Of a DNA stretch of 64,000 nucleotides, positions 4,231 through 63,788 are shown in pieces (positions within the stretch are counted from its first letter, which is position 1; each line of letters begins with the position of its first letter). The notes below the pieces were generated by a model. That model did no database searches, was not told where the DNA came from, and worked only from the letters and a program-made list of their open reading frames with translations. Both the position numbers and the translations under genes were made by a program. Origin of the DNA: Spironucleus salmonicida (Eukaryota); assembly GCF_000497125.1 (NCBI RefSeq), contig NC_090603.1, positions 186,001-250,000 on the forward strand, in the 5' to 3' direction.

Positions 4231-5403
4231 TCACTCGGCGTAGCTCTTGAAGTAGTTCTGGATCAGCACGAACGGGGTGCCCTTGTCGCCGCTGCCCGTG
4301 GTGAGGTCCGCCAGGCTCCCGAGCAGGTCCGTCAGCGCCCTGGGCGTGGTGCCCTGCGCGGCGATGCTACCCACCAGGTCCGCGCTCTTGCGCCTGATGA
4401 GGGCGCGCATGGCCTGCTCCGCCTCCGGGCCGCTCAGCCCGTCCAGCTCGTTGTCGGCGGCGTACTTGAGCTTGATCTCGTTGGGGAGCCCGCTGAGACC
4501 CGCCGTGAAGCCGGGGCTCACCACGGGGTCCGCCAGCTCCCAGATGCCGCCGACGGGGTCCTTGAAGGCGCCGTCGCCGAAGACCATGACCTCGAGCGTC
4601 CTGCCGGTGCGGGCCAGGAGGTCAGCCTGGATCTGCTCGACCAGGGCCTGCGAGTCGCGTGGGAAGAGCTTCACCTGGTCGTCCCGGGCGAGGTTGCTGC
4701 CGAGGAGCCCGAACTGGGGCTGGAAGCCGGAGCCGTCCACGCTGGCCGTGAGCAGGTCGTCCAGGCAGAGCACGGTCCGCGCGCCTTGACTGAGCAGACG
4801 CTGCTTGGTGCGCCCGCGGGAGTGGATGTCCGCGGCGATGACGACGTCGGTGTAGGCGAGGATGTGCGCGGGGTCGTTGCTCAGCACGATCTCGCAGTTG
4901 GGGCCGGCGACGGACTTGTAGTATTCGATGTAGTCTACGCCGGTGAACTGGTGGATGGTGCTCGGGAAGTGGGCGCGGAAGGCGGCCTCTGTGAAGTGGT
5001 CCGAGTGGGGGTTAATGCCCTTGGCGAGCAGAGCCTCAATGGGGAACAGCAGGTTGCCTACCTCGTCGCCCGGGTAGGACAGCTGGATGACCACTTTGTC
5101 CACGCCCTGCGCGATGCCCTTGAGGAGCATCGAGAAGCGGTTCCGGGACAGGATGGGGAACACCAACCCTACCGTACCACCGCCTGTCTTGGTGCGGACG
5201 TCGGCAGCGATGGCCGCCGTGGAGGCGTAGTTGCCCTGGGCGCGGGCGACGACTGACTCGGTGATACAGACCACGTCGCGGTCCTGGAGGGTCACAGAGT
5301 TTTCTTGGGCCGCCTTGAGAACGGTATCGACCACGATGGCGCGGAGGTCGTCTCCCTGCTTGATGATCGGAGCGCGGATGCCACGAGACACAACGCCTAG
5401 CAT
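4231..5403 (-). CDS. cofE: F420-0:gamma-glutamyl ligase-like (CofE/DUF129) protein, bacterial type, 390 aa
   Basis: Motifs GIRAPIIKQGDDL, DVVCITESVVARAQG, GDGAFKDPVGGIWELADP, SLADLTTGSGDKGTP. Ends GAGTGA, with CCCACTTCC upstream. Confidence 0.85.
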   Translation of the reverse strand: MLGVVSRGIRAPIIKQGDDLRAIVVDTVLKAAQENSVTLQDRDVVCITESVVARAQGNYASTAAIAADVRTKTGGGTVGLVFPILSRNRFSMLLKGIAQGVDKVVIQLSYPGDEVGNLLFPIEALLAKGINPHSDHFTEAAFRAHFPSTIHQFTGVDYIEYYKSVAGPNCEIVLSNDPAHILAYTDVVIAADIHSRGRTKQRLLSQGARTVLCLDDLLTASVDGSGFQPQFGLLGSNLARDDQVKLFPRDSQALVEQIQADLLARTGRTLEVMVFGDGAFKDPVGGIWELADPVVSPGFTAGLSGLPNEIKLKYAADNELDGLSGPEAEQAMRALIRRKSADLVGSIAAQGTTPRALTDLLGSLADLTTGSGDKGTPFVLIQNYFKSYAE

Positions 5404-8546: not shown

Positions 8547-9762
8547 TTTATGAAGAAACGGAAAAACCACAATCTCAGTATTTACAGTAAACTTCAAATT
8601 AAAATTTGTTCATTTCTTAATTTCTTGTACAGTTTAATATAAGGAAAGGAATAATATTTGAGGACGTATCGCTTTTTAAGCTTAGTAATATTAACGATAA
8701 ATACGTAGAAGTTAGAAGAAACTAGGCGTATATTGTTAGGTTCAGAAAATGTAGTAAAATTTCAATTTATAATTTTAAACATAAATACGTAATATACAAG
8801 TAAATATAAATTATTTTATTCGGGGTTTGTATAGAATTTTGAGATATTGTATAATACATTCCAAGCATAATATGCAGTCCGCACTAAAAATCTTATTTAA
8901 CATACAATGTATTACTATTTAATTCATTTAGCACCAATCATAAAATAAAATATAGTAAACAAATAATGTATAAGGTAGCGAATTAACTTGAATATTTGAA
9001 ATGCATAAAATATACGATAATTTACAAGAGTTTTTGTAACCATTCATCATGAGGTTGCAGCTCATTATTTTAGTAAATTGCGTATTTACATAAAACTCCA
9101 GCTTATTTGAGAATCATTTCCTAAAGATCATCAAATACACGCAATTTTTTATTTACCTTCTCATTATTAACGCGTATTTTTACTACACCAATTCAATTAT
9201 GTCATATATTTGGTAAATTATCAGTCGAATTTATTATATAGAATGTGAGCGCAATATAATAAATCTCTGCCCTTATAAATAGAGGCGGGATTTACTGTAT
9301 CGCCAGATACCAGTCCATTAGCCTTCCTATTTTTGAAACCATTGACTAGTCCGACCTTTATTCGTTACGGCCGCTTTACCTAATAACTGGGCTTGGCGGG
9401 ATATTGGGCGGGGTTTTTGTGGCCGGTATTCAGATATTGGTTGATATCAGGGGGTTCAAGCAGCCTAAGCAGTGAGGATGTGTAATTGTGATTTTTGCAG
9501 TTCTGTGCACGTGCGCATAGCACTGAGCCGTTCGCATATTATTTACGAAAAATTATCCATAGATTATATATAATATTTTTTAGAGTTAGAAAGTAGTTTG
9601 CTACATATTAGGTGCACGCAACTCTCTGCCTCTAAGTAGAGTGTTTTTTCTGCTAACCTTCTGCTAACCTATTCTTTCAACGAGACCCCCAGCATCTAGA
9701 TTCGGAGCTCAGGCTAACCCTACGCGGCCCTACTCGCTGGGCTCGGTATACGCCCCCCAAGA

Positions 9763-10467
9763 ATGCCAGCCTGCCGCAACATCTCCGCCCAGCCTGCCCT
9801 CGAAGTAGCCAGGGAGATCGCCGCCGTGATCCGCGCCAAGCCCGACGCCGTGCTCGGCCTCGCGACTGGCTCCACGCCCATCCCGGTGTACCAGGAGCTC
9901 GCGCGCATGCACCGCGAGGAGGGCCTCGACTTCTCCAGCGTACGCTCCATCAATCTGGACGAGTACTACGGCCTCTCAGGCGACCACCCCCAGTCCTACC
10001 GCCACTTCATGCACGAGCACCTGTTCCGCCACGTGAACATCCGGCGCTGCAACACGCACTTCCTCGACGGCTCGGTACCACAGGACTGCATCGACCGCGA
10101 GTGCGACCGCTACGAGGCGCTCGTGTCCAGCTGCCCTCCGGACATATGGCTCCTCGGGATCGGCCTCAACGGTCACATCGCCTTCAACGAACCGGGATCC
10201 GCCTGCGAGTCCCGCACCAGGTTCGTGAGCCTCACTCCCTCCACCATCGAGGCCAACCGCCGCTTCTTCGGCGTCGATGAGCAGGTCCCCACTTCCTCCC
10301 TCACGGTGGGCATCTCCACCATCCTCAAGGCCCGCAAGCTCGTCCTCCTCGCAACCGGCGACGCCAAGAAATGCGCGGTCGACGCCGCCTTCGCCAGCGT
10401 GTCGTCCGACTGCCCGGCCTCCTTCCTTCAGGGCACCGACTGCGGGTTCTGGGTGGACTTCGAGTGA
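9763..10467 (+). CDS. nagB: Glucosamine-6-phosphate deaminase/isomerase, 234 aa
   Basis: LGLATGSTP, NLDEYYGL, GIGLNGHIAFNEPG motifs. Ends GAGTGA. Confidence 0.95.
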   Translation: MPACRNISAQPALEVAREIAAVIRAKPDAVLGLATGSTPIPVYQELARMHREEGLDFSSVRSINLDEYYGLSGDHPQSYRHFMHEHLFRHVNIRRCNTHFLDGSVPQDCIDRECDRYEALVSSCPPDIWLLGIGLNGHIAFNEPGSACESRTRFVSLTPSTIEANRRFFGVDEQVPTSSLTVGISTILKARKLVLLATGDAKKCAVDAAFASVSSDCPASFLQGTDCGFWVDFE

Positions 10468-11020
10468 TTCTTTCGCTTGTTTACAAGGCCAATTTTCTCA
10501 TAGTATCATATTACGGTTACTTGTACAATATATATTTATATATTCTCACGCTGTGCCATATTATTAGGGATAATAATATTATTTCTCAGAATAGTGGTAC
10601 AGTACACATAGGGTACAAAGCGATAAATACTTCAACCAAGCTCTAAAATGCTTGGGAATGCCTGATATTAGCTATACATGATTGGTATAATACTAAATGT
10701 CGCAGCATTCCAGTGCTAAATTCTAAAGACTATCGTATAACGTGTTTCAATAACGAGACTTCCCTACATCCATAAATTAGGACTGTATAGCGATGATGAA
10801 ATATTGGTACTAACGCTGCAACTACACACCTCCCTGGCCACCTTTAGGAGGATCTAAAGTAAGCAATCATCCTGTCCACTCTCGCGCAGAGGCCCATCGC
10901 ACTCTATAGTAGGAGATCTTTTAAAATATTGCATATGCCTATTTGGATCGCTGGCCACGGCAATTATTATCGAAGGCGGATCTGGATACAGGTAAATATA
11001 CCGTGCGCTAAAAATGTACA

Positions 11021-11093
11021 GGGCTGGTAGCTCAGTTGGGAGAGCGCATCCCTAGCATGGATGAGGCCCGGGGTTCAATCCCCCGTTAGTCCA
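11021..11093 (+). tRNA. tRNA-Ala (AGC)
   Basis: Cloverleaf: acceptor GGGCTGG/TTAGTCC with G3:U70, D arm GCTC/GAGC, anticodon CATCC-CTAGCAT-GGATG, T arm CGGGG-TTCAATC-CCCCG, discriminator A. Confidence 0.97.
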
Positions 11094-12099
11094 AATTTTC
11101 CAAATTGCAGAAGTACATACGGAAAGCAACTATGATTTTTTGATTTGTCATAGTAATATATTTCTATGTATATCAAGGAATACCCAGGCCTGAACTCACT
11201 CTATTCCTAGCTCCCGCTTAAGTAGGTCACTAATCTCGACCCCATTCCTCTTAAATTTACCATCTACTAAATCAAAATGAGATGGTCCAGAAACTGGAGA
11301 CGATAGCCATAACTACTAGGTAGGGTTTTGTTTGTTAAGGACATACTGACCATTGTTCGCCGGAAATTAAAGAACTCCATATGACAGCTATGTATCTACA
11401 TTAAGCGCTTTCTCGACAAGACTCTAGATATTGTTTAACACGGATGTTACCTGAAGTGAGTACGTCATTTTTATAATAGTATACAAATACTATTTTATAT
11501 ATAATATTAAAATAAATTTGTAATAATACAGTGCTACAAACATACTTTTACTTGGATACAAACTATTGTAATATTGACCAGTATGCTACACAAAGGGGTA
11601 GAGCTGATATTCTGCTGAAAAATATATTAATAATCAGCTGAAACTTAAAAACTAGTAGTATTATTATGAGTTATTATAAGTTATAGTATATAATACATAT
11701 TACGAACCTATTTAGACCAACGTAATTATTTTATCTACTATGCGGCAATTCCTCAGCTTTCTAGCTGCTATATAACCATCTCCCTCTTTATCTCCCACAC
11801 CTAACCCTAACCGTAAACCCTTCCCTCAGCCACTAATTTTCACTCCACTTAAAAACATAATTTACACTAATCTATGTACTATTTATCAGTAATTTACATT
11901 TTCCCTTCCATTTCACCAAAAACAAGACTGGCAAACCTTCTCTGAAACCATCCAAAATTACATTATTATACCATTTTATCATAATATAATAATCACCCTG
12001 TTTTACTTTTCCCCTTTCAAATTTAACCACTCCAATTCATCCCCTTCCACAAATTTCCTTTCCTTTCCTTTCCTTTTTCACTCCACTCCGCTCCACTTT

Positions 12100-12965
12100 C
12101 TCCAAATTCGTTCCTGCAGGCCACACAGAGTGAAGAATACACCGGCGTATACCCACTGCAATTCAGGATTTCCGTTAGGGAAAGGACGTCGGGAAGGCTA
12201 AAATTTTGTAGAATTTGATTAGCATATTTGTCAATTCAGAGCTTCGCGGAATGGAGCAATTTTAGTTTTTATTTGGCGGGTTTTGTTGGATCATATGGTG
12301 AAGAAATTTTGCTTCGTTATATCACATGAGTAGAATTTTTTTTGCTAATTTGACACTGAAAATTTGCAATAGAAATTGAATAAACTACTTTTCCTTGGGT
12401 TTATAAGACTATTTTAGCGGAATATAGAGCTTTATTCTGAGGTAGAAACCGAGTAATCATTCCGCGCAAATTTTTCGGATCGTTATATCATATGAAATAA
12501 TATTTATAAACTATTATATCGTAAATAATAGATTTAATCCAGAATAATTCTACAGTGAAACGCTATTTTCCTATTTTTGCAAATTCTGGCATCTGTTTCA
12601 TCGCAAAAGTTACACTTTGGGAGGGAAAGGACGTCCGTTTCGCACTCGCTTTTCAGCTCAAATTTGGTCAAAAAATACATAATTCTGGCTTGTTGGATCA
12701 CACGTAAAGCAGTTTTTGTCATCAATTTTTCTGTTATTTTGACATATATAGCACATAATATACACTATATAATCAATATTCACTTATATCAGGAGTTTTC
12801 GTCTCTGTAACAGCAATTACACCTTTTTAGTGCACTGGCCATCTGATCTAACTGCTTCGGTGCGGTCAACTTCGAACTGTTCTAAAATAATTGTGAAGTA
12901 GAGAATGCTGGAGGTAGGGTGCTAGTCTGTGCATCTTTCATAGTAGAATTTATTTTCGTGGCATA
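12100..12965 (-). pseudogene. Degenerate cysteine-rich protein remnant
   Basis: CxxC fragments in mixed frames with TGAs (CYICQNNRKIDDKNCFTCDP; CETDVLSLPKCNFC; DVLSLTEILNC...LCVAC). Internal repeats AGGGAAAGGACGTC (~12177, ~12622) and TCGTTATATCA (~12313, ~12480). Confidence 0.35.
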
Positions 12966-13382
12966 AAATTTTTGGTGGAGAGAGAAAAAAGGAGAGGCAA
13001 GTAAGAAGGGGGTAAATGAGTGGTTTAAATGGCGATATTAAACGGTGTAAACTATTACTTGTAGAATATTAGTTGAGAAAGTGATTGTGTGGAAGGGAAT
13101 TTTGTAATAATGTATATTAAAAGATATAATAATATTAATAATAGAAACCTTAATCTAAAATTCCAATTTTAGATAAATTTGGTGGTTGAAGTTGAAGACT
13201 GTTGAAAATATAGTTAGAAATTAGCAGAATAAGTGCAAAATATAATTTGTGATTTTTATAATTTGGAAATGTGAGTTAGCATAGAATAGTGGAGTAATAG
13301 TTTTCAGTAGCAGTTTTATTGTAGTATTTATAGGATTAGGCATAATACTACAACAATTATAGCCAATCCTGGCCGATTATAT

Positions 13383-16300
13383 CAGCCAGGTGCTCTGGAC
13401 CAGGTCTGGGTGGCCGCAGCCAAGTGCTCTCGAGCTGACCGAGGGTGGCCGCAGCCAGGTGCTCTCGAGCTGACCGAGGGTGGCCGCAGCCAAGTGCTCT
13501 CGAGCTGACCGAGGGTGGCCGCAGCCAGGTGCTCTCGAGCTGACCGAGGGTGGCCGCAGCCAAGTGCTCTCGAGCTGACCGAGGGTGGCCGCAGCCAGGT
13601 GCTCTCGAGCTGACCGAGGGTGGCCGCAGCCAGGTGCTCTGGACCAGGTCTGGGTGGCCTCAACCAGGTGCTCTCGAGCTGACCGAGGGTGGCCGCAGCC
13701 AGGTGCTCTCGAGCTGACCGAGGGTGGCCGCAGCCAGGTGCTCTGGACCAGGTCTGGGTGGCCTCAACCAGGTGCTCTCGAGCTGACCGAGGGTGGCCTC
13801 AACCAGGTGCTCTCGAGCTGACCGAGGGTGGCCGCAGCCAGGTGCTCTCGAGCTGACCGAGGGTGGCCGCAGCCAAGTGCTCTGGACCAGGTCTGGGTGG
13901 CCTCAACCAGGTGCTCTCGAGCTGACCGAGGGTGGCCGCAGCCAGGTGCTCTGGACCAGGTCTGGGTGGCCTCAACCAGGTGCTCTCGAGCTGACCGAGG
14001 GTGGCCGCAGCCAAGTGCTCTGGACCAGGTCTGGGTGGCCTCAACCAAGTGCTCTCGAGCTGACCGAGGGTGGCCTCAACCAGGTGCTCTCGAGCTGACC
14101 GAGGGTGGCCGCAGCCAGGTGCTCTGGACCAGGTCTGGGTGGCCTCAACCAGGTGCTCTCGAGCTGACCGAGGGTGGCCGCAGCCAGGTGCTCTGGACCA
14201 GGTCTGGGTGGCCTCAACCAGGTGCTCTCGAGCTGACCGAGGGTGGCCGCAGCCAAGTGCTCTCGAGCTGACCGAGGGTGGCCGCAGCCAGGTGCTCTGG
14301 ACCAGGTCTGGGTGGCCTCAACCAGGTGCTCTCGAGCTGACCGAGGGTGGCCGCAGCCAGGTGCTCTGGACCAGGTCTGGGTGGCCTCAACCAGGTGCTC
14401 TCGAGCTGACCGAGGGTGGCCGCAGCCAAGTGCTCTGGACCAGGTCTGGGTGGCCTCAACCAAGTGCTCTCGAGCTGACCGAGGGTGGCCTCAACCAGGT
14501 GCTCTCGAGCTGACCGAGGGTGGCCGCAGCCAAGTGCTCTCGAGCTGACCGAGGGTGGCCGCAGCCAGGTGCTCTGGACCAGGTCTGGGTGGCCTCAACC
14601 AGGTGCTCTCGAGCTGACCGAGGGTGGCCGCAGCCAGGTGCTCTCGAGCTGACCGAGGGTGGCCGCAGCCAGGTGCTCTGGACCAGGTCTGGGTGGCCTC
14701 AACCAGGTGCTCTCGAGCTGACCGAGGGTGGCCGCAGCCAGGTGCTCTGGACCAGGTCTGGGTGGCCTCAACCAGGTGCTCTCGAGCTGACCGAGGGTGG
14801 CCTCAACCAGGTGCTCTCGAGCTGACCGAGGGTGGCCGCAGCCAAGTGCTCTGGACCAGGTCTGGGTGGCCTCAACCAGGTGCTCTCGAGCTGACCGAGG
14901 GTGGCCGCAGCCAGGTGCTCTGGACCAGGTCTGGGTGGCCTCAACCAGGTGCTCTCGAGCTGACCGAGGGTGGCCGCAGCCAGGTGCTCTGGACCAGGTC
15001 TGGGTGGCCTCAACCAGGTGCTCTCGAGCTGACCGAGGGTGGCCGCAGCCAAGTGCTCTGGACCAGGTCTGGGTGGCCTCAACCAAGTGCTCTCGAGCTG
15101 ACCGAGGGTGGCCGCAGCCAGGTGCTCTGGACCAGGTCTGGGTGGCCTCAACCAAGTGCTCTCGAGCTGACCGAGGGTGGCCGCAGCCAGGTGCTCTGGA
15201 CCAGGTCTGGGTGGCCTCAACCAAGTGCTCTCGAGCTGACCGAGGGTGGCCGCAGCCAGGTGCTCTGGACCAGGTCTGGGTGGCCTCAACCAGGTGCTCT
15301 CGAGCTGACCGAGGGTGGCCGCAGCCAAGTGCTCTGGACCAGGTCTGGGTGGCCTCAACCAGGTGCTCTCGAGCTGACCGAGGGTGGCCGCAGCCAAGTG
15401 CTCTGGACCAGGTCTGGGTGGCCTCAACCAGGTGCTCTCGAGCTGACCGAGGGTGGCCGCAGCCAGGTGCTCTGGACCAGGTCTGGGTGGCCTCAACCAG
15501 GTGCTCTCGAGCTGACCGAGGGTGGCCGCAGCCAGGTGCTCTGGACCAGGTCTGGGTGGCCTCAACCAAGTGCTCTCGAGCTGACCGAGGGTGGCCGCAG
15601 CCAAGTGCTCTGGACCAGGTCTGGGTGGCCTCAACCAGGTGCTCTCGAGCTGACCGAGGGTGGCCTCAACCAGGTGCTCTCGAGCTGACCGAGGGTGGCC
15701 GCAGCCAAGTGCTCTGGACCAGGTCTGGGTGGCCTCAACCAAGTGCTCTCGAGCTGACCGAGGGTGGCCGCAGCCAGGTGCTCTGGACCAGGTCTGGGTG
15801 GCCTCAACCAGGTGCTCTGGACCAGGTCTGGGTGGCCTCAACCAGGTGCTCTGGACCAGGTCTGGGTGGCCTCAACCAGGTGCTCTGGACCAGGTCTGGG
15901 TGGCCTCAACCAGGTGCTCTCGAGCTGACCGAGGGTGGCCGCAGCCAGGTGCTCTGGACCAGGTCTGGGTGGCCTCAACCAGGTGCTCTGGACCAGGTCT
16001 GGGTGGCCTCAACCAGGTGCTCTCGAGCTGACCGAGGGTGGCCGCAGCCAGGTGCTCTGGACCAGGTCTGGGTGGCCTCAACCAAGTGCTCTCGAGCTGA
16101 CCGAGGGTGGCCGCAGCCAGGTGCTCTCGAGCTGACCGAGGGTGGCCGCAGCCAAGTGCTCTGGACCAGGTCTGGGTGGCCTCAACCAGGTGCTCTCGAG
16201 CTGACCGAGGGTGGCCGCAGCCAAGTGCTCTCGAGCTGACCGAGGGTGGCCGCAGCCAGGTGCTCTGGACCAGGTCTGGGTGGCCTCAACCAGGTGCTCT

Positions 16301-19300
16301 GGACCAGGTCTGGGTGGCCTCAACCAGGTGCTCTCGAGCTGACCGAGGGTGGCCGCAGCCAGGTGCTCTGGACCAGGTCTGGGTGGCCTCAACCAAGTGC
16401 TCTCGAGCTGACCGAGGGTGGCCGCAGCCAGGTGCTCTCGAGCTGACCGAGGGTGGCCGCAGCCAAGTGCTCTGGACCAGGTCTGGGTGGCCTCAACCAG
16501 GTGCTCTCGAGCTGACCGAGGGTGGCCGCAGCCAAGTGCTCTCGAGCTGACCGAGGGTGGCCTCAACCAGGTGCTCTCGAGCTGACCGAGGGTGGCCGCA
16601 GCCAAGTGCTCTCGAGCTGACCGAGGGTGGCCGCAGCCAGGTGCTCTGGACCAGGTCTGGGTGGCCTCAACCAAGTGCTCTCGAGCTGACCGAGGGTGGC
16701 CTCAACCAGGTGCTCTCGAGCTGACCGAGGGTGGCCGCAGCCAAGTGCTCTGGACCAGGTCTGGGTGGCCTCAACCAGGTGCTCTGGACCAGGTCTGGGT
16801 GGCCTCAACCAGGTGCTCTGGACCAGGTCTGGGTGGCCTCAACCAAGTGCTCTCGAGCTGACCGAGGGTGGCCTCAACCAGGTGCTCTCGAGCTGACCGA
16901 GGGTGGCCGCAGCCAAGTGCTCTGGACCAGGTCTGGGTGGCCTCAACCAGGTGCTCTGGACCAGGTCTGGGTGGCCTCAACCAGGTGCTCTCGAGCTGAC
17001 CGAGGGTGGCCGCAGCCAAGTGCTCTCGAGCTGACCGAGGGTGGCCGCAGCCAGGTGCTCTGGACCAGGTCTGGGTGGCCTCAACCAGGTGCTCTCGAGC
17101 TGACCGAGGGTGGCCGCAGCCAAGTGCTCTCGAGCTGACCGAGGGTGGCCGCAGCCAGGTGCTCTGGACCAGGTCTGGGTGGCCTCAACCAGGTGCTCTC
17201 GAGCTGACCGAGGGTGGCCGCAGCCAAGTGCTCTCGAGCTGACCGAGGGTGGCCGCAGCCAGGTGCTCTCGAGCTGACCGAGGGTGGCCGCAGCCAGGTG
17301 CTCTCGAGCTGACCGAGGGTGGCCGCAGCCAGGTGCTCTGGACCAGGTCTGGGTGGCCTCAACCAGGTGCTCTCGAGCTGACCGAGGGTGGCCGCAGCCA
17401 AGTGCTCTGGACCAGGTCTGGGTGGCCTCAACCAGGTGCTCTCGAGCTGACCGAGGGTGGCCGCAGCCAGGTGCTCTCGAGCTGACCGAGGGTGGCCGCA
17501 GCCAGGTGCTCTCGAGCTGACCGAGGGTGGCCGCAGCCAGGTGCTCTGGACCAGGTCTGGGTGGCCTCAACCAGGTGCTCTCGAGCTGACCGAGGGTGGC
17601 CGCAGCCAAGTGCTCTCGAGCTGACCGAGGGTGGCCGCAGCCAGGTGCTCTGGACCAGGTCTGGGTGGCCTCAACCAGGTGCTCTGGACCAGGTCTGGGT
17701 GGCCTCAACCAAGTGCTCTCGAGCTGACCGAGGGTGGCCGCAGCCAGGTGCTCTGGACCAGGTCTGGGTGGCCTCAACCAGGTGCTCTCGAGCTGACCGA
17801 GGGTGGCCGCAGCCAAGTGCTCTCGAGCTGACCGAGGGTGGCCGCAGCCAGGTGCTCTGGACCAGGTCTGGGTGGCCTCAACCAGGTGCTCTCGAGCTGA
17901 CCGAGGGTGGCCGCAGCCAGGTGCTCTCGAGCTGACCGAGGGTGGCCGCAGCCAAGTGCTCTGGACCAGGTCTGGGTGGCCTCAACCAGGTGCTCTCGAG
18001 CTGACCGAGGGTGGCCGCAGCCAGGTGCTCTCGAGCTGACCGAGGGTGGCCGCAGCCAGGTGCTCTCGAGCTGACCGAGGGTGGCCGCAGCCAGGTGCTC
18101 TGGACCAGGTCTGGGTGGCCTCAACCAGGTGCTCTCGAGCTGACCGAGGGTGGCCGCAGCCAAGTGCTCTGGACCAGGTCTGGGTGGCCGCAGCCAGGTG
18201 CTCTCGAGCTGACCGAGGGTGGCCGCAGCCAGGTGCTCTCGAGCTGACCGAGGGTGGCCGCAGCCAGGTGCTCTGGACCAGGTCTGGGTGGCCTCAACCA
18301 GGTGCTCTCGAGCTGACCGAGGGTGGCCGCAGCCAAGTGCTCTGGACCAGGTCTGGGTGGCCGCAGCCAGGTGCTCTCGAGCTGACCGAGGGTGGCCGCA
18401 GCCAAGTGCTCTGGACCAGGTCTGGGTGGCCTCAACCAGGTGCTCTCGAGCTGACCGAGGGTGGCCGCAGCCAAGTGCTCTGGACCAGGTCTGGGTGGCC
18501 TCAACCAGGTGCTCTCGAGCTGACCGAGGGTGGCCGCAGCCAGGTGCTCTGGACCAGGTCTGGGTGGCCTCAACCAGGTGCTCTCGAGCTGACCGAGGGT
18601 GGCCGCAGCCAAGTGCTCTGGACCAGGTCTGGGTGGCCTCAACCAGGTGCTCTCGAGCTGACCGAGGGTGGCCGCAGCCAGGTGCTCTGGACCAGGTCTG
18701 GGTGGCCTCAACCAGGTGCTCTCGAGCTGACCGAGGGTGGCCGCAGCCAGGTGCTCTGGACCAGGTCTGGGTGGCCTCAACCAGGTGCTCTCGAGCTGAC
18801 CGAGGGTGGCCGCAGCCAAGTGCTCTCGAGCTGACCGAGGGTGGCCGCAGCCAGGTGCTCTGGACCAGGTCTGGGTGGCCGCAGCCAGGTGCTCTCGAGC
18901 TGACCGAGGGTGGCCGCAGCCAGGTGCTCTGGACCAGGTCTGGGTGGCCTCAACCAGGTGCTCTCGAGCTGACCGAGGGTGGCCGCAGCCAGGTGCTCTG
19001 GACCAGGTCTGGGTGGCCTCAACCAGGTGCTCTCGAGCTGACCGAGGGTGGCCGCAGCCAAGTGCTCTGGACCAGGTCTGGGTGGCCGCAGCCAGGTGCT
19101 CTCGAGCTGACCGAGGGTGGCCGCAGCCAGGTGCTCTCGAGCTGACCGAGGGTGGCCGCAGCCAAGTGCTCTGGACCAGGTCTGGGTGGCCTCAACCAGG
19201 TGCTCTCGAGCTGACCGAGGGTGGCCGCAGCCAAGTGCTCTGGACCAGGTCTGGGTGGCCTCAACCAGGTGCTCTCGAGCTGACCGAGGGTGGCCGCAGC

Positions 19301-22300
19301 CAGGTGCTCTGGACCAGGTCTGGGTGGCCTCAACCAGGTGCTCTCGAGCTGACCGAGGGTGGCCGCAGCCAAGTGCTCTGGACCAGGTCTGGGTGGCCTC
19401 AACCAGGTGCTCTCGAGCTGACCGAGGGTGGCCGCAGCCAGGTGCTCTGGACCAGGTCTGGGTGGCCTCAACCAGGTGCTCTCGAGCTGACCGAGGGTGG
19501 CCGCAGCCAGGTGCTCTGGACCAGGTCTGGGTGGCCTCAACCAGGTGCTCTCGAGCTGACCGAGGGTGGCCGCAGCCAAGTGCTCTCGAGCTGACCGAGG
19601 GTGGCCGCAGCCAGGTGCTCTGGACCAGGTCTGGGTGGCCTCAACCAGGTGCTCTCGAGCTGACCGAGGGTGGCCGCAGCCAGGTGCTCTCGAGCTGACC
19701 GAGGGTGGCCGCAGCCAGGTGCTCTGGACCAGGTCTGGGTGGCCTCAACCAGGTGCTCTCGAGCTGACCGAGGGTGGCCGCAGCCAGGTGCTCTGGACCA
19801 GGTCTGGGTGGCCTCAACCAGGTGCTCTCGAGCTGACCGAGGGTGGCCGCAGCCAGGTGCTCTGGACCAGGTCTGGGTGGCCTCAACCAGGTGCTCTCGA
19901 GCTGACCGAGGGTGGCCGCAGCCAAGTGCTCTGGACCAGGTCTGGGTGGCCGCAGCCAGGTGCTCTCGAGCTGACCGAGGGTGGCCGCAGCCAAGTGCTC
20001 TGGACCAGGTCTGGGTGGCCTCAACCAGGTGCTCTCGAGCTGACCGAGGGTGGCCGCAGCCAAGTGCTCTGGACCAGGTCTGGGTGGCCTCAACCAGGTG
20101 CTCTCGAGCTGACCGAGGGTGGCCGCAGCCAGGTGCTCTGGACCAGGTCTGGGTGGCCTCAACCAGGTGCTCTCGAGCTGACCGAGGGTGGCCGCAGCCA
20201 AGTGCTCTGGACCAGGTCTGGGTGGCCTCAACCAGGTGCTCTCGAGCTGACCGAGGGTGGCCGCAGCCAGGTGCTCTGGACCAGGTCTGGGTGGCCTCAA
20301 CCAGGTGCTCTCGAGCTGACCGAGGGTGGCCGCAGCCAAGTGCTCTCGAGCTGACCGAGGGTGGCCGCAGCCAGGTGCTCTGGACCAGGTCTGGGTGGCC
20401 GCAGCCAGGTGCTCTCGAGCTGACCGAGGGTGGCCGCAGCCAGGTGCTCTGGACCAGGTCTGGGTGGCCTCAACCAGGTGCTCTCGAGCTGACCGAGGGT
20501 GGCCGCAGCCAGGTGCTCTGGACCAGGTCTGGGTGGCCTCAACCAGGTGCTCTCGAGCTGACCGAGGGTGGCCGCAGCCAAGTGCTCTGGACCAGGTCTG
20601 GGTGGCCGCAGCCAGGTGCTCTCGAGCTGACCGAGGGTGGCCGCAGCCAGGTGCTCTCGAGCTGACCGAGGGTGGCCGCAGCCAAGTGCTCTGGACCAGG
20701 TCTGGGTGGCCTCAACCAGGTGCTCTCGAGCTGACCGAGGGTGGCCGCAGCCAAGTGCTCTGGACCAGGTCTGGGTGGCCTCAACCAGGTGCTCTCGAGC
20801 TGACCGAGGGTGGCCGCAGCCAGGTGCTCTGGACCAGGTCTGGGTGGCCTCAACCAGGTGCTCTCGAGCTGACCGAGGGTGGCCGCAGCCAAGTGCTCTG
20901 GACCAGGTCTGGGTGGCCTCAACCAGGTGCTCTCGAGCTGACCGAGGGTGGCCGCAGCCAGGTGCTCTGGACCAGGTCTGGGTGGCCTCAACCAGGTGCT
21001 CTCGAGCTGACCGAGGGTGGCCGCAGCCAGGTGCTCTGGACCAGGTCTGGGTGGCCTCAACCAGGTGCTCTCGAGCTGACCGAGGGTGGCCGCAGCCAAG
21101 TGCTCTCGAGCTGACCGAGGGTGGCCGCAGCCAGGTGCTCTGGACCAGGTCTGGGTGGCCGCAGCCAGGTGCTCTCGAGCTGACCGAGGGTGGCCGCAGC
21201 CAGGTGCTCTGGACCAGGTCTGGGTGGCCTCAACCAGGTGCTCTCGAGCTGACCGAGGGTGGCCGCAGCCAGGTGCTCTGGACCAGGTCTGGGTGGCCTC
21301 AACCAGGTGCTCTCGAGCTGACCGAGGGTGGCCGCAGCCAAGTGCTCTGGACCAGGTCTGGGTGGCCGCAGCCAGGTGCTCTCGAGCTGACCGAGGGTGG
21401 CCGCAGCCAGGTGCTCTCGAGCTGACCGAGGGTGGCCGCAGCCAAGTGCTCTGGACCAGGTCTGGGTGGCCTCAACCAGGTGCTCTCGAGCTGACCGAGG
21501 GTGGCCGCAGCCAAGTGCTCTGGACCAGGTCTGGGTGGCCTCAACCAGGTGCTCTCGAGCTGACCGAGGGTGGCCGCAGCCAGGTGCTCTGGACCAGGTC
21601 TGGGTGGCCTCAACCAGGTGCTCTCGAGCTGACCGAGGGTGGCCGCAGCCAAGTGCTCTGGACCAGGTCTGGGTGGCCTCAACCAGGTGCTCTCGAGCTG
21701 ACCGAGGGTGGCCGCAGCCAGGTGCTCTGGACCAGGTCTGGGTGGCCTCAACCAGGTGCTCTCGAGCTGACCGAGGGTGGCCGCAGCCAGGTGCTCTGGA
21801 CCAGGTCTGGGTGGCCTCAACCAGGTGCTCTCGAGCTGACCGAGGGTGGCCGCAGCCAAGTGCTCTCGAGCTGACCGAGGGTGGCCGCAGCCAGGTGCTC
21901 TGGACCAGGTCTGGGTGGCCTCAACCAGGTGCTCTCGAGCTGACCGAGGGTGGCCGCAGCCAGGTGCTCTCGAGCTGACCGAGGGTGGCCGCAGCCAGGT
22001 GCTCTGGACCAGGTCTGGGTGGCCTCAACCAGGTGCTCTCGAGCTGACCGAGGGTGGCCGCAGCCAGGTGCTCTGGACCAGGTCTGGGTGGCCTCAACCA
22101 GGTGCTCTCGAGCTGACCGAGGGTGGCCGCAGCCAGGTGCTCTGGACCAGGTCTGGGTGGCCTCAACCAGGTGCTCTCGAGCTGACCGAGGGTGGCCGCA
22201 GCCAAGTGCTCTGGACCAGGTCTGGGTGGCCGCAGCCAGGTGCTCTCGAGCTGACCGAGGGTGGCCGCAGCCAAGTGCTCTGGACCAGGTCTGGGTGGCC

Positions 22301-22944
22301 TCAACCAGGTGCTCTCGAGCTGACCGAGGGTGGCCGCAGCCAAGTGCTCTGGACCAGGTCTGGGTGGCCTCAACCAGGTGCTCTCGAGCTGACCGAGGGT
22401 GGCCGCAGCCAGGTGCTCTGGACCAGGTCTGGGTGGCCTCAACCAGGTGCTCTCGAGCTGACCGAGGGTGGCCGCAGCCAAGTGCTCTCGAGCTGACCGA
22501 GGGTGGCCGCAGCCAGGTGCTCTGGACCAGGTCTGGGTGGCCGCAGCCAGGTGCTCTCGAGCTGACCGAGGGTGGCCGCAGCCAGGTGCTCTGGACCAGG
22601 TCTGGGTGGCCTCAACCAGGTGCTCTCGAGCTGACCGAGGGTGGCCGCAGCCAGGTGCTCTGGACCAGGTCTGGGTGGCCTCAACCAGGTGCTCTCGAGC
22701 TGACCGAGGGTGGCCGCAGCCAGGTGCTCTGGACCAGGTCTGGGTGGCCTCAACCAGGTGCTCTCGAGCTGACCGAGGGTGGCCGCAGCCAGGTGCTCTG
22801 GACCAGGTCTGGGTGGCCTCAACCAGGTGCTCTCGAGCTGACCGAGGGTGGCCGCAGCCAGGTGCTCTCGAGCTGACCGAGGGTGGCCGCAGCCAGGTGC
22901 TCTGGACCAGGTCTGGGTGGCCTCAACCAGGTGCTCTGGACCAG
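13383..22944. repeat. Modular tandem satellite, ~277 units of 35 bp (GTGCTCTCGAGCTGACCGAGGGTGGCCGCAGCCAG) and 34 bp (GTGCTCTGGACCAGGTCTGGGTGGCCTCAACCAG)
   Basis: Direct reading. Mostly A-B 69-bp dimers with AA/BB interruptions, and abrupt GC-rich boundaries against AT-rich flanks. Confidence 0.99.
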
Positions 22945-23271
22945 TTAGTGAATATTCTATGCTAGATTGTTGTTTATGTAATCAAAGGTTCTTATTAGTT
23001 TTTCATTGAACTAAGAATGGATAATATTATTATAAAATGGCAATTGTATTTATTATAGTTTAATTTGTTCAAATTTTAAAATCTAGGACTAATAAATAAT
23101 AGTATGGCTAATATTATTATTACGATATATTCTCAATATTAATTTTTTCGAATATTGTTTTATGATAGATACATTATTCTAATTTTATCTTTTTTTAAGA
23201 ATTTTACAGTTTATTTTTGCAAATAAATAGTTAATCAATATAGTTAATAAATTTCATTTATTTTAAGAAAA

Positions 23272-23472
23272 ATGAAAAAACTTTAATATAATAAGCGAAT
23301 AGAGGGTTTCAAAAAGCTATGTCAATAAAATATTGCTACTCTTTAATTGTAAGATAAATAAGGATAGATTATAGCTGAGGTTCAAAAAATAGATAGGCAT
23401 TAAAATAAAGATTAACTCACTATCGTTGAACCGCTATAAACAAATATTTGGTTCTAAAATGCAAACTAATGA
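23272..23472 (+). CDS. Small hypothetical protein, 66 aa (MKKLQYNKRIEGFKKL...)
   Basis: Table-6 ORF, convergent with and ending 10 bp from the next gene. Confidence 0.35.
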
Positions 23473-23482
23473 TAAATCTGTT

Positions 23483-23851
23483 TCACTCCCAATCAACAAT
23501 AATTCTATTCTTAGTATCAATGAATTCATTGATACTACGTCTAGCGACTTAGTATTTTGTACGCCAAGTTCTTCCAACGGGCGGTGAGCATCTTCTTTAA
23601 TTTTCCGCTTATAGAACTATTTTGTCTGTTTCAAAAATACATGCTTATGGGATAAACTACTTTCTATCATAAAATTCATCTTTAATTGCAGAAAGAGGAT
23701 TTGATTTTTTTTTAAAGATTGGATTATATAGACCTCTTCTAAAATTTAGCACATTCTCATGTTTAATATAAATAACAGGTTCTAATGCCTAGTATACCTA
23801 TGTTGAATTTTTTAATGGGTTTCTACTTTCTGTTTAAAGTTAGAAATTCAT
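23483..23851 (-). CDS. Hypothetical protein, 122 aa
   Basis: Table-6 ORF MNFQLQTESRNP...RIIVDWE ending GAGTGA. Confidence 0.6.
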
Positions 23852-24404
23852 ATTATATCCTAGAATTTTAAGTATAAAATATTTATATTTATAATATTTT
23901 TTACAAATTTATAATTAGTCTATAAAATTGATATATTTATAGGTTTAGAAAAATAAGGTATAAATAACGAAATATACTTTTTAAGATAAAGATAATATGC
24001 TTTATATCAATCTTCCATGCTTATAATTGTTTGGATAGATTCAGAATTATACTTAATTAAAATTATTTACTTCTCGTCAATAGGATGCTTTTATAAAGTA
24101 ACTAGTATATGCGGAGGATTAATTCAGTTTAAACTAAGATAGGGGCCATAAATTTGGTGTAATAGCATATTGTGAGTATTATATGAGAAATATTTCAACA
24201 TCTATCTAATTAGGAAGGATCAGATAAAATGAATTAGTTTCTTCTACCAAATTTCGTATGATAGTTCCTTACTGTATTTTATAATAAATATATTAGAATA
24301 ATTTATCTAAAATATTATTGCAAGTTAAAATTTATTTCTCATAAACTATAAACAAAATTTATTATAGGTATAATATATAATTAATATATAATTAAATTTT
24401 ATTA

Positions 24405-26078
24405 ATGAAGTAAAATATGTATGGCTCTAGGCCAACATCTACTAGTTAAAAAACTACTCTTAATTCAGCAAAATCTCAATCAGAATCCTAAATTGCTAAA
24501 GAGAATGCAGAACGAAGGAAAAGATAATAAAATTTATAAAAAAGACTTGAAGATGAAGAATAGCAAAGAATATAAGATGCTTTACTAAAGAAAAAATAAC
24601 AATAATAACAAATTACATAGATAGCAAGATAAGCAGTAAAATCTACTCCAATTTCCTAAAAAAAGTAACATATACGATCTGAGTCGCCAGATCCTAAGTA
24701 GGAAGCACAATAAGATTTTTAAAAATTTCTCAGCAAGGTTAAGGAAGCAGCTGGTGCAACGAATTTAGATTTTTTAGAAAAAAATCTATCATAAAGTAAA
24801 TCTCGAATTGCCTCAGCAAAAGCTGAGCCAACACCTCTTGATTAATCAAGATAGAGAATCAATGATTTACCAAAATAAAAAATAGACCCATTAAATGATA
24901 TGTATAATGATGATAAAACTCTTATAGATACGTCAGATGATTAAGAGTATGAAAATGAATATGATAGGAAAATTTTTGTTTAAAAAGAACAATTACAGAT
25001 TGAAATGCTTAGTAACAGTTCAGATGATGAAGAAGAAGTATCTAGACGGTAGTTAAGTATTAGATAAAAATAGAATGAACTTCGTGAGTTAACAGAAAGT
25101 AAGAAATTAGACAGAAGTGTAATAGAGTAAGTCAAATAATTTAAAGAATCATAATAGAGAGCTTTAAAGGTATAAGAGACTCTTAAAACTAAAAATAAGC
25201 AAGACATATAGAAGCCACCACCAGCTCGTAAACATCCTGGTTAGTAAGAATAATCAAGATTATCATTAGAAATAAAAAACTATACATCTTAGGAAAAACA
25301 ACTTGAAAATGAGTTAAACCAATTAGATTAGAAATTATACAAACTTGATTAGCTTTCTGTTATCAATTTAGAAAATATATAATAATATAATTCTAACACA
25401 GAAGCATCCGTTTTTGATAATTTTAATTCAAGAATTGATGATTAAACTTAAATTGAGTTATTAGCTCTTAATTAAGCATAATTGGATTCTGATGGAAATA
25501 TTACCAATAAAGATGAAGTAGCAGCTATTTAACGTAAGTTGCGAGCTGAACTCAGTAGAAAAATTATTTCATAATCAACAGCTGGTAAAGCAAAAAAATA
25601 ACTATAGGTTGTTAATATAATTAGTTAAACACCTATTATTTCCAATTAACTTATCGAAGATAATACTCCCAAAAAGCTTGAGCGTAAAATATAACCTGTA
25701 GATTAGAATGCTATTAATGCTATGTTCATGAACGAATAACCATCAAATAGTAAAGAAGATCTATTTAGGGCTATAGTTTAATAACAAGAATTTCCAGTTA
25801 GAAAAATATAAAATTATGAACCAATTTAGTAAAATATTTATGATACTGCTCCCGCTGTTGAACTTTCTATGGCTGCATAGGAAGCATTATCTAGATATGA
25901 TGGATCTCTAAATGAAAATTTTTAGGAAAAGGAAATCAACGATGAAAGTGATATGGATGACTTATATGGAAATATGTAAGAAGTAAATTTTAAAAGAGGT
26001 AGTGTTGAATATAAAGGCGAAATTTATGAAGCTGATGATGATGATGAAGATTATGATTTTGGCGGTATTTCAGAATGA
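24405..26078 (+). CDS. Coiled-coil hypothetical protein with acidic tail, 557 aa
   Basis: Long table-6 ORF MKQNMYGSRPTSTSQK...DDEDYDFGGISE, Q/E/K-rich. Confidence 0.8.
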
Positions 26079-57909: not shown

Positions 57910-58104
57910 ATGAAATTGGTTAACAAAGCTAAAAGCACGAATAAGCTACCTAAGGTATCTGCACGTATTTCTGTATAAGCTTAAGAGAGTGTTATTCCAG
58001 ATTTAGAGGTGAGCGTCTTATCTCGATAAAGTACTGTCGAAGAGCTTGATGACCTATTATAAATGGTGTCTGACTGGTCGGACTTGGACAATTGGACGAA
58101 ATGA
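57910..58104 (+). CDS. Microprotein, 64 aa, straddling the left outer IR boundary
   Basis: MKLVNKAKSTNKLPK...ESVIPDLE...LDDLLQMVSDWSDLDNWTK. Confidence 0.65.
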
Positions 58105-58105
58105 G

Positions 58106-58600
58106 TCACTTCCTGCGGGCCCTGAGCAGCAGCGCCTCGCGTGCCCTGCGGAGGTCGGTCGCCCGCTGGCGCTGGACGGCGTAGCGCTCGCCCATGGCCC
58201 GGAGCTGGGCCTGCTGGCGCTCCATCTTCGCCTCGATGCCGGCGACGACCTGGTGCAGCCCCAGGAGCTCGGCCACCGCGACGGCGATCTGCTCGCGGAA
58301 CATGCGGCTGTCCTCGGTGACCTCGCTGCAGGTGCTCTCGCTCACCTCCACCATCAGGAGGGACCGCGACACCTGCCGCACGAAGGAGGGCTCGGGCGAG
58401 CGGGCGGAGAGCAGCAGGTCCTCCCTCGCGCCGAGCGCCTTGGGCCGCAGGGACAGCGCGGGGTACAGCGCGTCCGCGAAGGCCTTCGCCGCCTTCTGGG
58501 CCCGCGGCGTGCACAGCGGCGCCAGCACCGGCGGGGTGGTGGGCCGGTCTTCTGCAGCAGTGCCTTCATTCTGGTTGGACGAAGTAGTTTGCCCTACCAT
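58106..58600 (-). CDS. Coiled-coil hypothetical protein, 164 aa (copy 1)
   Basis: GC3-rich ORF ending AAGTGA. Confidence 0.65.
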   Translation of the reverse strand: MVGQTTSSNQNEGTAAEDRPTTPPVLAPLCTPRAQKAAKAFADALYPALSLRPKALGAREDLLLSARSPEPSFVRQVSRSLLMVEVSESTCSEVTEDSRMFREQIAVAVAELLGLHQVVAGIEAKMERQQAQLRAMGERYAVQRQRATDLRRAREALLLRARRK

Positions 58601-58719
58601 ATGGCTAACTGCCAGAAATGTCGGCGGAGTGAAAACGTAAACTTAACAGCACTCAGATCGCACCCATGGTTTCAGTGGTCTCGTCTCCGCGCCAGCTCGC
58701 GTCAGAAGGCGGCGTCCTG

Positions 58720-59043
58720 TCAGCACACGGTGTAGCCGAAGCGGTCCTCGAAGTCGAAGGCCTGCACCACCGCGCCGAGGAGGGTCACACCGGCCAGCGC
58801 GGGGGCCTGCAGGGAGAGGCAGAGGCGCGCCGAGGGCGGGATGTCCAGCAGCGCGCGGTTGCCCACCAGCGGCACCGCTATGTCCCCGGCGGCGGTGTGC
58901 ACGAGGCAGGACCCCACGGCGCAGGGCGCGGCCAGCACTACCTCCCGCACCCTCACGATCGCGTCGAAGGCGAAGTGCAGGGGCTGCCCGCTGGCGTCCA
59001 GAGGGAACTGCGGGCGGGCGAGCAGGAGCGGGCCCAGGTCCAT
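58720..59043 (-). CDS. Hypothetical beta-rich protein, 107 aa (copy 1)
   Basis: MDLGPLLLARPQFPLDASGQPLHFAF...FGYTVC, GC3 bias. Confidence 0.55.
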   Translation of the reverse strand: MDLGPLLLARPQFPLDASGQPLHFAFDAIVRVREVVLAAPCAVGSCLVHTAAGDIAVPLVGNRALLDIPPSARLCLSLQAPALAGVTLLGAVVQAFDFEDRFGYTVC

Positions 59044-59059
59044 TCGAAGTCCGCTCCGA

Positions 59060-59437
59060 ATGCTCACTCCACGGCGGTCCGTCATCTTCGACGCGAACCC
59101 CGCCCTCACGCGGCTCGCGCGCTCCCAGCTGCTGGGGACGCAGATCGTAGACCTCGGCCAGGCGGTGGCGGCCCTGCAGGCGGAGCAGGACGCCCTGCGC
59201 ACCGAGCAGTGCCAGCTGCGCTACGACATCGCGGAGCTCACCGCCCGGCCCCCCGCGGTGCGCCATGCCCCCCTCCTGCACTTCGAGGCCTTCTACCCTA
59301 CCGAGGCGCGCGGCAACGCCCCCCTCCTGCGCACCGAGCTGGCCCGCCTCCGCGCCGAGATCGGCCAGCTGGGCGCGCTCCTCACCACAGCACCCGGCCC
59401 GCCTGCGCAACCTCCGCCGCCTGCCACAGTGCCCTGA
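59060..59437 (+). CDS. Small coiled-coil protein, 125 aa (copy 1)
   Basis: MLTPRRSVIFDANP..., CCGCTCC just upstream. Confidence 0.55.
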   Translation: MLTPRRSVIFDANPALTRLARSQLLGTQIVDLGQAVAALQAEQDALRTEQCQLRYDIAELTARPPAVRHAPLLHFEAFYPTEARGNAPLLRTELARLRAEIGQLGALLTTAPGPPAQPPPPATVP

Positions 59438-59885
59438 GCTGCAGGTCCAGGTACGCCGCGCTCCAGTGCTGCTCCGCGCCCTGCTGGCGAAGGGCGTCCG
59501 CCTGCTGCGCCGCGTTCCGGCTCGAGATGTCGCTGAAGTTCGCCAGCGAGTCAGTCATTAGGGGGATAGATCGATCCAACTCAGGAAGCTCGCGCACTCG
59601 GAAAATCTACTCAATTGGATCGACCTTTCCGTCCTCAGTGAGCGCTTTCAGCACACCCTTATAGTCGGCCAAAGAGCAGTAATTTTTGCCTTTGACCAGC
59701 CCTGTATATTTTTTAACCATCTCGATGGTGAGCATGTAGTGGTTCTTCATGCCACTGCGCATTTGCTTTAGGTTGGAGTGCCGGTTGTGGTTACAGTCAA
59801 ACCAGTAGAAGATCGCCAGCAGCTCAATATGTCTAATTTTCCACCTATAGACACTACCAGCTATATAGCAGTAGAATTTTTTCAT
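59382..59885 (-). CDS. N-terminally different, shortened copy of the 61582..62511 gene, 167 aa
   Basis: MKKFYCYIAGSVYRWKIRHIEL is fused in frame to LAIFYWFDCNH...GRVLW. Confidence 0.5.
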
Positions 59886-61581: not shown

Positions 61582-62511
61582 ATGGGTTGTGCAGGCGCAG
61601 ACGAAATAGACGACGAGCTGAAGCATGCCGCGCCAGATTTTGAGCTGCAAACCAATCCTGCCTATACCGCATACTGCTAGGCAGATTTCAGGTGCCAGTT
61701 CAAGCCGTTTGAAATGGCGGATTTGTTTTTCGAGGACTTCGAAATCGCGTAATGCGACCCGCCAGAGGCGAGTAAAAAGGCGAGTAAAAAGAAAGGCGAC
61801 GACTCAGATTCAGAGCCTGAGGAAAGGGAGTTCAAGCAGATGCACTATCGAAGCGTCAGGATGCGCTTCAGTATTTTTTCTGAAAAAATGCGATAGATTT
61901 ACGATTTCCTAACGCCGCAGGACGTGTGCGCAAGTCATAATTATATCAACTTTAGACACGGTTTTCAGCTGAGGCGCATGGCGGAATTCGCAGATGTTCA
62001 TATTTCCGTTGAGGAGTTCATAAACTATGGATATGTGTTTTATAGGTTTAACGAAATTCTCAAGAATCCAGCGCTGGCCATCTTCTACTGGTTTGACTGT
62101 AACCACAACCGGCACTCCAACCTAAAGCAAATGCGCAGTGGCATGAAGAACCACTACATGCTCACCATCGAGATGGTTAAAAAATATACAGGGCTGGTCA
62201 AAGGCAAAAATTACTGCTCTTTGGCCGACTATAAGGGTGTGCTGAAAGCGCTCACTGAGGACGGAAAGGTCGATCCAATTGAGTAGATTTTCCGAGTGCG
62301 CGAGCTTCCTGAGTTGGATCGATCTATCCCCCTAATGACTGACTCGCTGGCGAACTTCAGCGACATCTCGAGCCGGAACGCGGCGCAGCAGGCGGACGCC
62401 CTTCGCCAGCAGGGCGCGGAGCAGCACTGGAGCGCGGCGTACCTGGACCTGCAGCTCAGGGCACTGTGGCAGGCGGCGGAGGTTGCGCAGGCGGGCCGGG
62501 TGCTGTGGTGA
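61582..62511 (+). CDS. Hypothetical protein with MGC N-terminus, 309 aa
   Basis: Joins track ORFs 61924 and 62296 through TAG. The 3' half lies in the right IR arm. Confidence 0.75.
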
Positions 62512-62833
62512 GGAGCGCGCCCAGCTGGCCGATCTCGGCGCGGAGGCGGGCCAGCTCGGTGCGCAGGAGGGGGGCGTTGCCGCGCGCCTCGGTAGGGTAG
62601 AAGGCCTCGAAGTGCAGGAGGGGGGCATGGCGCACCGCGGGGGGCCGGGCGGTGAGCTCCGCGATGTCGTAGCGCAGCTGGCACTGCTCGGTGCGCAGGG
62701 CGTCCTGCTCCGCCTGCAGGGCCGCCACCGCCTGGCCGAGGTCTACGATCTGCGTCCCCAGCAGCTGGGAGCGCGCGAGCCGCGTGAGGGCGGGGTTCGC
62801 GTCGAAGATGACGGACCGCCGTGGAGTGAGCAT
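62456..62833 (-). CDS. Small coiled-coil protein, 125 aa (copy 2)
   Basis: Mirror of 59060..59437. Confidence 0.55.
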   Translation of the reverse strand: MLTPRRSVIFDANPALTRLARSQLLGTQIVDLGQAVAALQAEQDALRTEQCQLRYDIAELTARPPAVRHAPLLHFEAFYPTEARGNAPLLRTELARLRAEIGQLGALLTTAPGPPAQPPPPATVP

Positions 62834-62849
62834 TCGGAGCGGACTTCGA

Positions 62850-63787: not shown

Positions 63788-63788
63788 C

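Follow-up and report, generated by a model that had tools for sequence, protein, structure and literature searches.

A chromosome-specific GC-rich minisatellite as candidate centromeric DNA in the diplomonad Spironucleus salmonicida

The window analysed here is a 64,000-nucleotide stretch of the Spironucleus salmonicida genome (assembly GCF_000497125.1, contig NC_090603.1), which corresponds to C8:186001-250000 of an assembly of 14.5 Mb in 42 contigs (C1-C42). A GC-rich minisatellite spans positions 13383-22944 of the window, partial end units included. On the assembly it lies internally, at C8:199.4-208.9 kb, 199 kb away from the telomere repeats with which C8 begins. The array and its surroundings consist of the following features, given in window coordinates (ORF, open reading frame; LZ, Lempel-Ziv):

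11021..11093, plus strand: tRNA-Ala(AGC) gene, 2.3 kb left of the array and the sole tRNA gene in the 64-kb window
11900..13072, unstranded: stretch with cover from the contigs of three probable RNA runs, with small minus-strand ORFs at 12789-12941 and 12291-12722; the strand of transcription is inferred only
13088..13382, unstranded: left flank, AT-rich (GC 0.25), unique in the genome
13390..18232, unstranded: left half of the array, units 1-140, more mixed, with all 8 A-TCAA and all 12 B-TCAA-A units; LZ complexity 34
18233..22930, unstranded: right half of the array, units 141-276, with higher-order repeats that span 22 units (760 bp) and 66 units (2280 bp) and 10 of the 11 B-GCAG-G units; LZ complexity 20
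22945..24416, unstranded: right flank, AT-rich (GC 0.22), with an AGTGA word at 22947, 2 nt past the array, judged to be at chance level
24417..26078, plus strand: nearest credible right-hand gene, 553 amino acids, a frame without a Pfam match, directed away from the array

The next gene lies about 11 kb beyond the RNA-covered stretch, which places the array in an unusually long gene-poor interval; the mean intergenic distance in S. salmonicida is reported to be 421 bp (PMC3916229). Being non-coding and gene-poor, as a regional satellite centromere is, the window array shares both of these properties. For long ORFs to emerge in the window, TAA and TAG have to be translated as glutamine; these ORFs include an arginine deiminase and a VSP-like cysteine-rich protein, which marks the organism as a diplomonad of the Hexamitinae type. 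The 1-kb segment containing the tRNA-Ala gene (10470-11470) has four more copies, 93-95% identical, at C8:108-123 kb. A gene with a Pfam F420_ligase match (E 1e-53) occupies a GC-rich block at 4231-5403 on the minus strand. This family is better known from prokaryotes, and lateral transfer is possible.

The sequence-only reading of this stretch had described about 277 units made of constant linkers and three two-state slots, essentially without other substitutions. Tokenising the array with a regular expression of that grammar bore this out: positions 13390-22930 are tiled by 276 of 276 contiguous full units of 34 or 35 bp, with no gap or off-grammar base. The contrast in composition also holds, as the GC content of the array is 0.68 vs 0.32 in the 1 kb to its left and 0.23 in the 1 kb to its right. 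All four combinations of the first two slots occur as claimed, but very unevenly (A-GCAG 149, A-TCAA 8, B-GCAG 12, B-TCAA 107), and seven of the eight three-slot unit types are present. The further proposal that the variation comes from free shuffling of three independent slots was not borne out. Slots 1 and 2 are linked (r2 0.73), slot 2 predicts the following slot 1 (r2 0.35), and only slot 3 is nearly independent of the others (r2 0.02-0.08). The longest repeated run comprises 53 units vs a maximum of 15 in 100 Markov simulations, and the right half of the array is composed of 760-bp and 2280-bp block duplications. The proposal of homogenisation by recombination is thus supported, and that of free slot shuffling is not. 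The order of the units suggests that two diverged monomers formed a 69-bp dimer, which may later have recombined out of register and been duplicated in blocks. In an in silico XhoI digest, the three fragment sizes that had been predicted, 69 bp (102 fragments), 35 bp (48) and 103 bp (4), were joined by additional fragments of 137 and 171 bp, one each.

Neither the grammar nor the base composition is peculiar to this locus. The few-variant grammar also occurs in other minisatellite arrays and in two coding repeats of the genome, and it is therefore generic here. The same applies to GC richness, since an inverted repeat in the window (58065-59824 / 62070-63828; 1.76 kb, 99.7% identical), which flanks a protein kinase gene in AT-rich surroundings, has 67% GC compared with 68% in the array. 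The observed/expected ratio of CpG was 0.26-0.55 in the arrays of C1, C2, C6 and C8 and in the two coding arrays vs 1.05 in GC-rich control pieces. With tandem units within the 9-100-bp range and few interspersed variants with local duplication, the window array is a member of the minisatellite class, while its membership of the centromere class is that of a candidate only.

A protein-coding tandem repeat was rejected because TGA stops are present in all six frames (33-61 in each, with at most 482 consecutive open codons) and the array is neither overlapped nor entered by any ATG-initiated ORF of at least 120 amino acids. The structural-RNA locus that had been suggested found no support either: Rfam matches in 9500-25000 were to tRNA only, with none on the array, the folding z of the array was 0.29 (DNA parameters, against 60 shuffled tandem controls) and palindrome density was at the control level, so that an excess of structure or hairpins was rejected as well. 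No RNA data set containing the array is on record. Its first 107 bases are not reached by the contigs of the three probable RNA runs, which all come from one study, a result that was not counted as evidence on transcription. A viral or foreign origin was rejected on the grounds of zero matches in viral and metagenome contigs. A subtelomeric satellite was likewise set aside, as the array is 199 kb from the C8 telomere repeats, forms a single locus and is not common to contig ends.

The B-unit motif gave 223 matches genome-wide (up to 3 mismatches), 119 in the window and 104 on contig C22, and another genome-wide pattern search of the array gave 513 forward matches and one isolated reverse match. 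The array is thus a single genomic locus, and its only second match is the redundant contig C22; the genome-wide pattern search found no sister arrays of the same sequence elsewhere in the assembly. C22 (9.8 kb) is regarded as a redundant assembly of the window locus because 213 units, in order, and 1523 bp of the right flank at 100% are identical to the window. The order of its first ~21 units differs from the window, within an error-rich contig start where allele and error are not distinguishable. C22 was possibly built from the same reads as C8, and polishing could mask rare variants. The left junction (11900-13411) is spanned with 0 differences by a contig of DNA run X1, in which the summed contig depth on the array is ~370-fold that of the flank, a value that is not a copy number. 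Two other small contigs are possible assembly by-products: C12 is a near-perfect palindrome, and C11 has two halves that overlap in similar sequence over ~6 kb.

As the redundant contig C22 arose from the window array, the other small contigs were examined for comparable arrays. The scan covered the first 10 kb (or the whole length) of all 33 small contigs, and in 16 of them additional parts as well. The nine contigs above 600 kb (large contigs) were treated as chromosomes because C8 starts with telomere-type repeats and nine chromosomes are reported for S. salmonicida (PMC3916229). Set apart before counting were AT-rich microsatellites of 5-8 bp (10 contigs), tandems of ~340 bp and 1504 bp, telomere repeats and a 440-bp array by the telomere on C10. 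Multi-kb arrays with units of 18-54 bp were found on 11 small contigs, and pattern searches gave their positions on the large contigs:

C1:908-916 kb: 33-bp array (triplet), small contig C24
C1:1.001 Mb: 21/22-bp array, 31% GC, small contig C18
C2:539 kb: 37-bp array, small contig C35
C3:844 kb: 29-bp array, small contig C25
C4:107 kb: 54-bp array (triplet), small contig C36
C4:833-855 kb: 18/20-bp array, small contig C26
C6:991 kb: 22-bp array, small contig C31
C6:1.34 Mb: 33-bp array (triplet), small contig C30
C7:827 kb: 25-bp array, small contig C17
C8:199.4-208.9 kb: 34/35-bp array (the window array), small contig C22
C9:428 kb: 44-bp array, small contig C13

Each array sequence is confined to one region, because the pattern counts reconcile within 0-2 matches for all seven of the other GC-rich arrays checked and exactly (119+104=223) for the window array. 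For the 31%-GC array, 257 matches were counted, of which the 100 listed all lie on C1, 128 belong to C18 itself and 29 are unplaced. The eight non-triplet arrays, each with its own sequence, lie on eight different large contigs of the nine (p=0.006, length-weighted). For the seven GC-rich non-triplet arrays the same spread has p=0.03, and for the ten GC-rich arrays including the triplet ones p=0.06. The sequence-only reading had considered a centromere, to be favoured by sister arrays, one per chromosome, and had proposed that a single locus, together with a lack of chromatin enrichment and of transcription, would indicate an ordinary variable number tandem repeat. Sister arrays of the same sequence are absent, but the centromere idea gains support in another form, with different arrays one per large contig. 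The single-locus rule does not hold because arrays of different sequence are distributed in this way. In all 11 arrays the folding z was between -1.2 and +1.2.

Two of the triplet arrays are coding: those at C4:107 kb and C6:1.34 Mb are each embedded in a long ORF whose ends are unique. At the edge of the 33-bp array of C1 stands an ATG, and a unique tail continues its frame; this array shares words of 9-11 nt with the C3 and C7 arrays. It probably encodes an 11-residue repeat protein of ~2800 amino acids with a unique tail; at C1:908-916 kb only two short inverted pieces of it are assembled. True array lengths are uncertain, since the large-contig copies on C1, C3, C7 and C9 measure 1.1-1.4 kb each vs 4.8-8.4 kb on the small contigs (3- to 6-fold) with identical flanks. 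These differences at the sister loci may be assembly collapse rather than allelic polymorphism.

Among the AT-rich microsatellites of 5-8 bp, which were rejected as centromere candidates, the multi-kb 8-bp and 5-bp ones of C20 and C37-C42 lie in one shared segment family, C20 has telomere repeats, and C11, C16 and C19 are unplaced.

Although the arrays differ in sequence, their units have short words in common. For the seven GC-rich non-triplet units, the mean longest shared word was 6.33 vs 5.61 in dinucleotide shuffles (reached by 5/1000) and vs 5.53 in GC-matched genomic pieces (reached by 21/1000). The two clearly coding units showed no word sharing beyond chance, as 141/400 and 234/400 shuffles reached their values. 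The longest pairwise shared word, of 12 nt, is that between C2 and C6; CCAG is present in all eight GC-rich arrays examined, and no longer box is common to all. By eye, the GC-rich core of the ~340-bp module array of C14 and C23 has a 10-nt word in common with the 22-bp unit of C6.

The arrays also tend to lie close to tRNA genes, at distances of 0.9 kb on C4, 2.3 kb on C8, 3.8 kb on C9, 4.9 kb on C6, 10.7 kb on C2 and 11.9 kb on C3. No tRNA gene was seen near the C7 array or on C18, where the flanks are short. A tRNA gene within 5 kb was found at four of the eight arrays (p 0.0003-0.013) and one within 12 kb at six of the eight (p <0.009), the p values being taken over an assumed 5-14 tRNA clusters per Mb. 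At C4:819-857 kb, the 18/20-bp array (12.2 kb) is surrounded by tRNA-Lys/tRNA-Leu pairs that recur in both direct and inverted orientation, and two satellite copies of it lie close by. The nearest credible genes are directed away from the array on both sides at C2, C3, C4, C7, C9 and probably C8, and not so at the C6 and C18 arrays.

A divergent histone H3 variant is encoded at C3:1310198-1310563. Its loop 1 is several residues longer than that of canonical H3, and the second and third of its PDB matches are S. pombe Cnp1. Other diagnostic residues of CenH3 were also considered, and we regard this protein as a candidate CenH3. A second divergent H3 is present at C7:282447. A cenH3 of Giardia was reportedly described by Dawson in 2007. 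Diplomonads are reported to be without CenpC (PMC8516963).

On this evidence, the window array may be the C8 member of a once-per-chromosome set of chromosome-specific, non-coding minisatellites that are candidate centromeric DNA, the leading reading, whose chances we put as evenly balanced. The broader proposal, held more tentatively and with slightly less confidence, is that diplomonad centromeres are multi-kb, mostly GC-rich minisatellites with units of 18-44 bp. These would be different on every chromosome, drawn from a shared vocabulary, possibly recruited from repeat-protein genes (the 33-bp array of C1 and the 29-bp array of C3 are still ORFs), and read by a divergent CenH3. In this reading, the nine large contigs would be the chromosomes, and a divergent CenH3-like histone would load on each array and seed a reduced kinetochore. 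Each array would be kept uniform by repair that repeatedly pairs sister or homologous copies out of register; this would also spread a few variants and block duplications and, together with GC-biased homogenisation in this genome, would make the arrays GC-rich. With exchange mostly intra-chromosomal and weak between chromosomes, the units would drift apart into chromosome-specific forms that nevertheless have short words in common.

Several observations weigh against the centromere reading. When all 11 arrays are counted, the three triplet ones included, the spread gives p=0.11. The non-triplet criterion is objective, but it was set after part of the mapping had been seen. None of the small-contig arrays belongs to C5, the C5 sequence itself being outside the scan, and the member on C1 is either the 31%-GC 21/22-bp array, which is unlike the others, or the GC-rich 33-bp array, which is probably coding. 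The 29-bp array of C3 is a complete ATG-to-AGTGA ORF in both of its assembled versions (1.3 kb and 5.4 kb). At C3:844207-845560 an ATG stands 20 nt before the array at the AT-to-GC boundary and an AGTGA stop follows in frame 36 nt past its end, giving 451 amino acids; the array has no TGA on either strand and is in frame again in the 5.4-kb version on C25. Taken alone, the window array has no significant word sharing with the other arrays (75/400 and 26/400). The tRNA distance windows were chosen post hoc from a partial genome-wide tRNA list (62 matches from 63 scored of 976 candidates), gene orientation comes from crude gene calls, and no flank element other than tRNA genes is common to the loci. 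The best PDB match of the C3 histone variant is Giardia H3 and not a CENP-A. Five of the eight arrays lie at relative positions of 0.47-0.60 on their contigs and the window array at 0.19; as a post hoc observation, this was not counted as support.

The alternative that survives best, though we consider it rather unlikely, is an ordinary hypervariable minisatellite with no chromosome-level function. Slippage and gene conversion would have enlarged it within an intergenic gap that tolerated growth, and biased homogenisation would have made it GC-rich; the one-per-contig spread would reflect coincidence and the choice of class. Linked variants, polarity and block duplications fit gene-conversion turnover, as human minisatellites are turned over by out-of-register gene conversion with block duplication of variant units (PMC2599865). 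The coding repeats with the same grammar, the window inverted repeat as GC-rich as the array, and the value of p=0.11 for all 11 arrays also fit it. The distribution of eight of eight arrays (or seven of seven GC-rich ones) over different contigs argues against it, as do the number of arrays, which is close to that of the large contigs, the shared words and the tRNA proximity.

Some other once-per-chromosome element, such as a major replication origin, a cohesin/condensin anchor or a pairing site, is improbable, and would be compatible with the centromere reading. It explains the spread, the head-to-head genes and the tRNA proximity equally well. Multi-kb satellites that occur once per chromosome are more often centromeric than otherwise, which speaks for the centromere. 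In Leishmania, each chromosome is reported to have one high-efficiency origin (PMC12890776).

Marginally less probable still is a decayed gene from a family that encodes giant repeat proteins or long non-coding RNAs, of which the 33-bp array of C1 and the 29-bp array of C3 would be members with frames still open. The C3 frame, the edge ATG, unique tail and shared words of the C1 array and the AGTGA word just past the window array point in this direction; AGTGA is reported to act as stop and poly(A) signal (PMC3916229). Against it stand the stops throughout the window array and the lack of an entering ORF, the stops in all six frames of the C2 array and those on the edge-ATG strand of the C6 array. 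The gene-like edges (ATG before, AGTGA after) were rejected as evidence for most arrays, C3 excepted, as they are at chance level given background rates of 0.015 per base for ATG and 0.0009 for AGTGA. An assembly artefact, in which a short array was inflated or smoothed by consensus, is very improbable: on large contigs the length of four other arrays is reduced 3- to 6-fold despite 100% identical flanks, so that not all lengths are reliable, but the 213 units identical in C22, the confirmed left junction and the depth in run X1 argue for the array as assembled.

Among known systems, the candidate set resembles the centromeres of T. brucei, where once-per-chromosome arrays between gene clusters measure 2-8 kb in the assembly, are under-assembled and vary in length by version (PMC3292466). 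Unlike the set described here, the T. brucei arrays are 20-120 kb long with AT-rich units of ~147 bp, in an organism without CenH3 (PMC3292466), whereas the S. salmonicida units are of 18-44 bp, mostly with 59-72% GC, and are known from sequence alone. The centromeric regions of T. cruzi likewise have GC above the background and lie near strand-switch regions at a compositional boundary, but they consist of retroelements (L1Tc, VIPER) rather than minisatellites and were mapped by kinetochore chromatin immunoprecipitation (PMC13508446). As in Timema douglasi, different chromosomes carry different repeat families, although the Timema motifs are mostly of 63-384 bp and often common to chromosome groups (PMC11691646). 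Divergent monomers with shared short words are also a feature of the Meloidogyne alphaCenH3 repeats, which, in contrast to the CCAG and the pairwise 12-nt word found here, have a shared 19-bp box (PMC8097292). The human loci MS32, MS205, CEB1 and MSY1 have similar GC-rich units of 9-100 bp with few interspersed variants, turned over by gene conversion, but they are neither one per chromosome nor centromeric, and allelic hypervariability is a feature of the human loci (PMC2599865).

Independent satellite trajectories per chromosome are supported by a 2026 atlas of 325 genomes, which names Metamonada as unrepresented (bioRxiv 10.64898/2026.09.17.752431). No reports of centromeric DNA in Spironucleus, Giardia or other metamonads were found in literature searches, most subscription journals and supplements being outside their coverage, and the main text, as available, of the genome papers PMC9509377, PMC3916229, PMC7000408, PMC11787283 and PMC7641422 gave 0 hits for the string 'centromer'.

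Even if the centromere reading fails, each array is a ready chromosome-specific probe for fluorescence in situ hybridisation, with which chromosomes could be counted in the two nuclei, and the arrays are a likely strain-typing marker. A ninth array is predicted on C5, a prediction made beforehand. The eight named loci and the candidate histone make the question of the diplomonad centromere directly testable, and, if the reading is true, the arrays would be the first centromeric DNA for Metamonada found in our literature searches.

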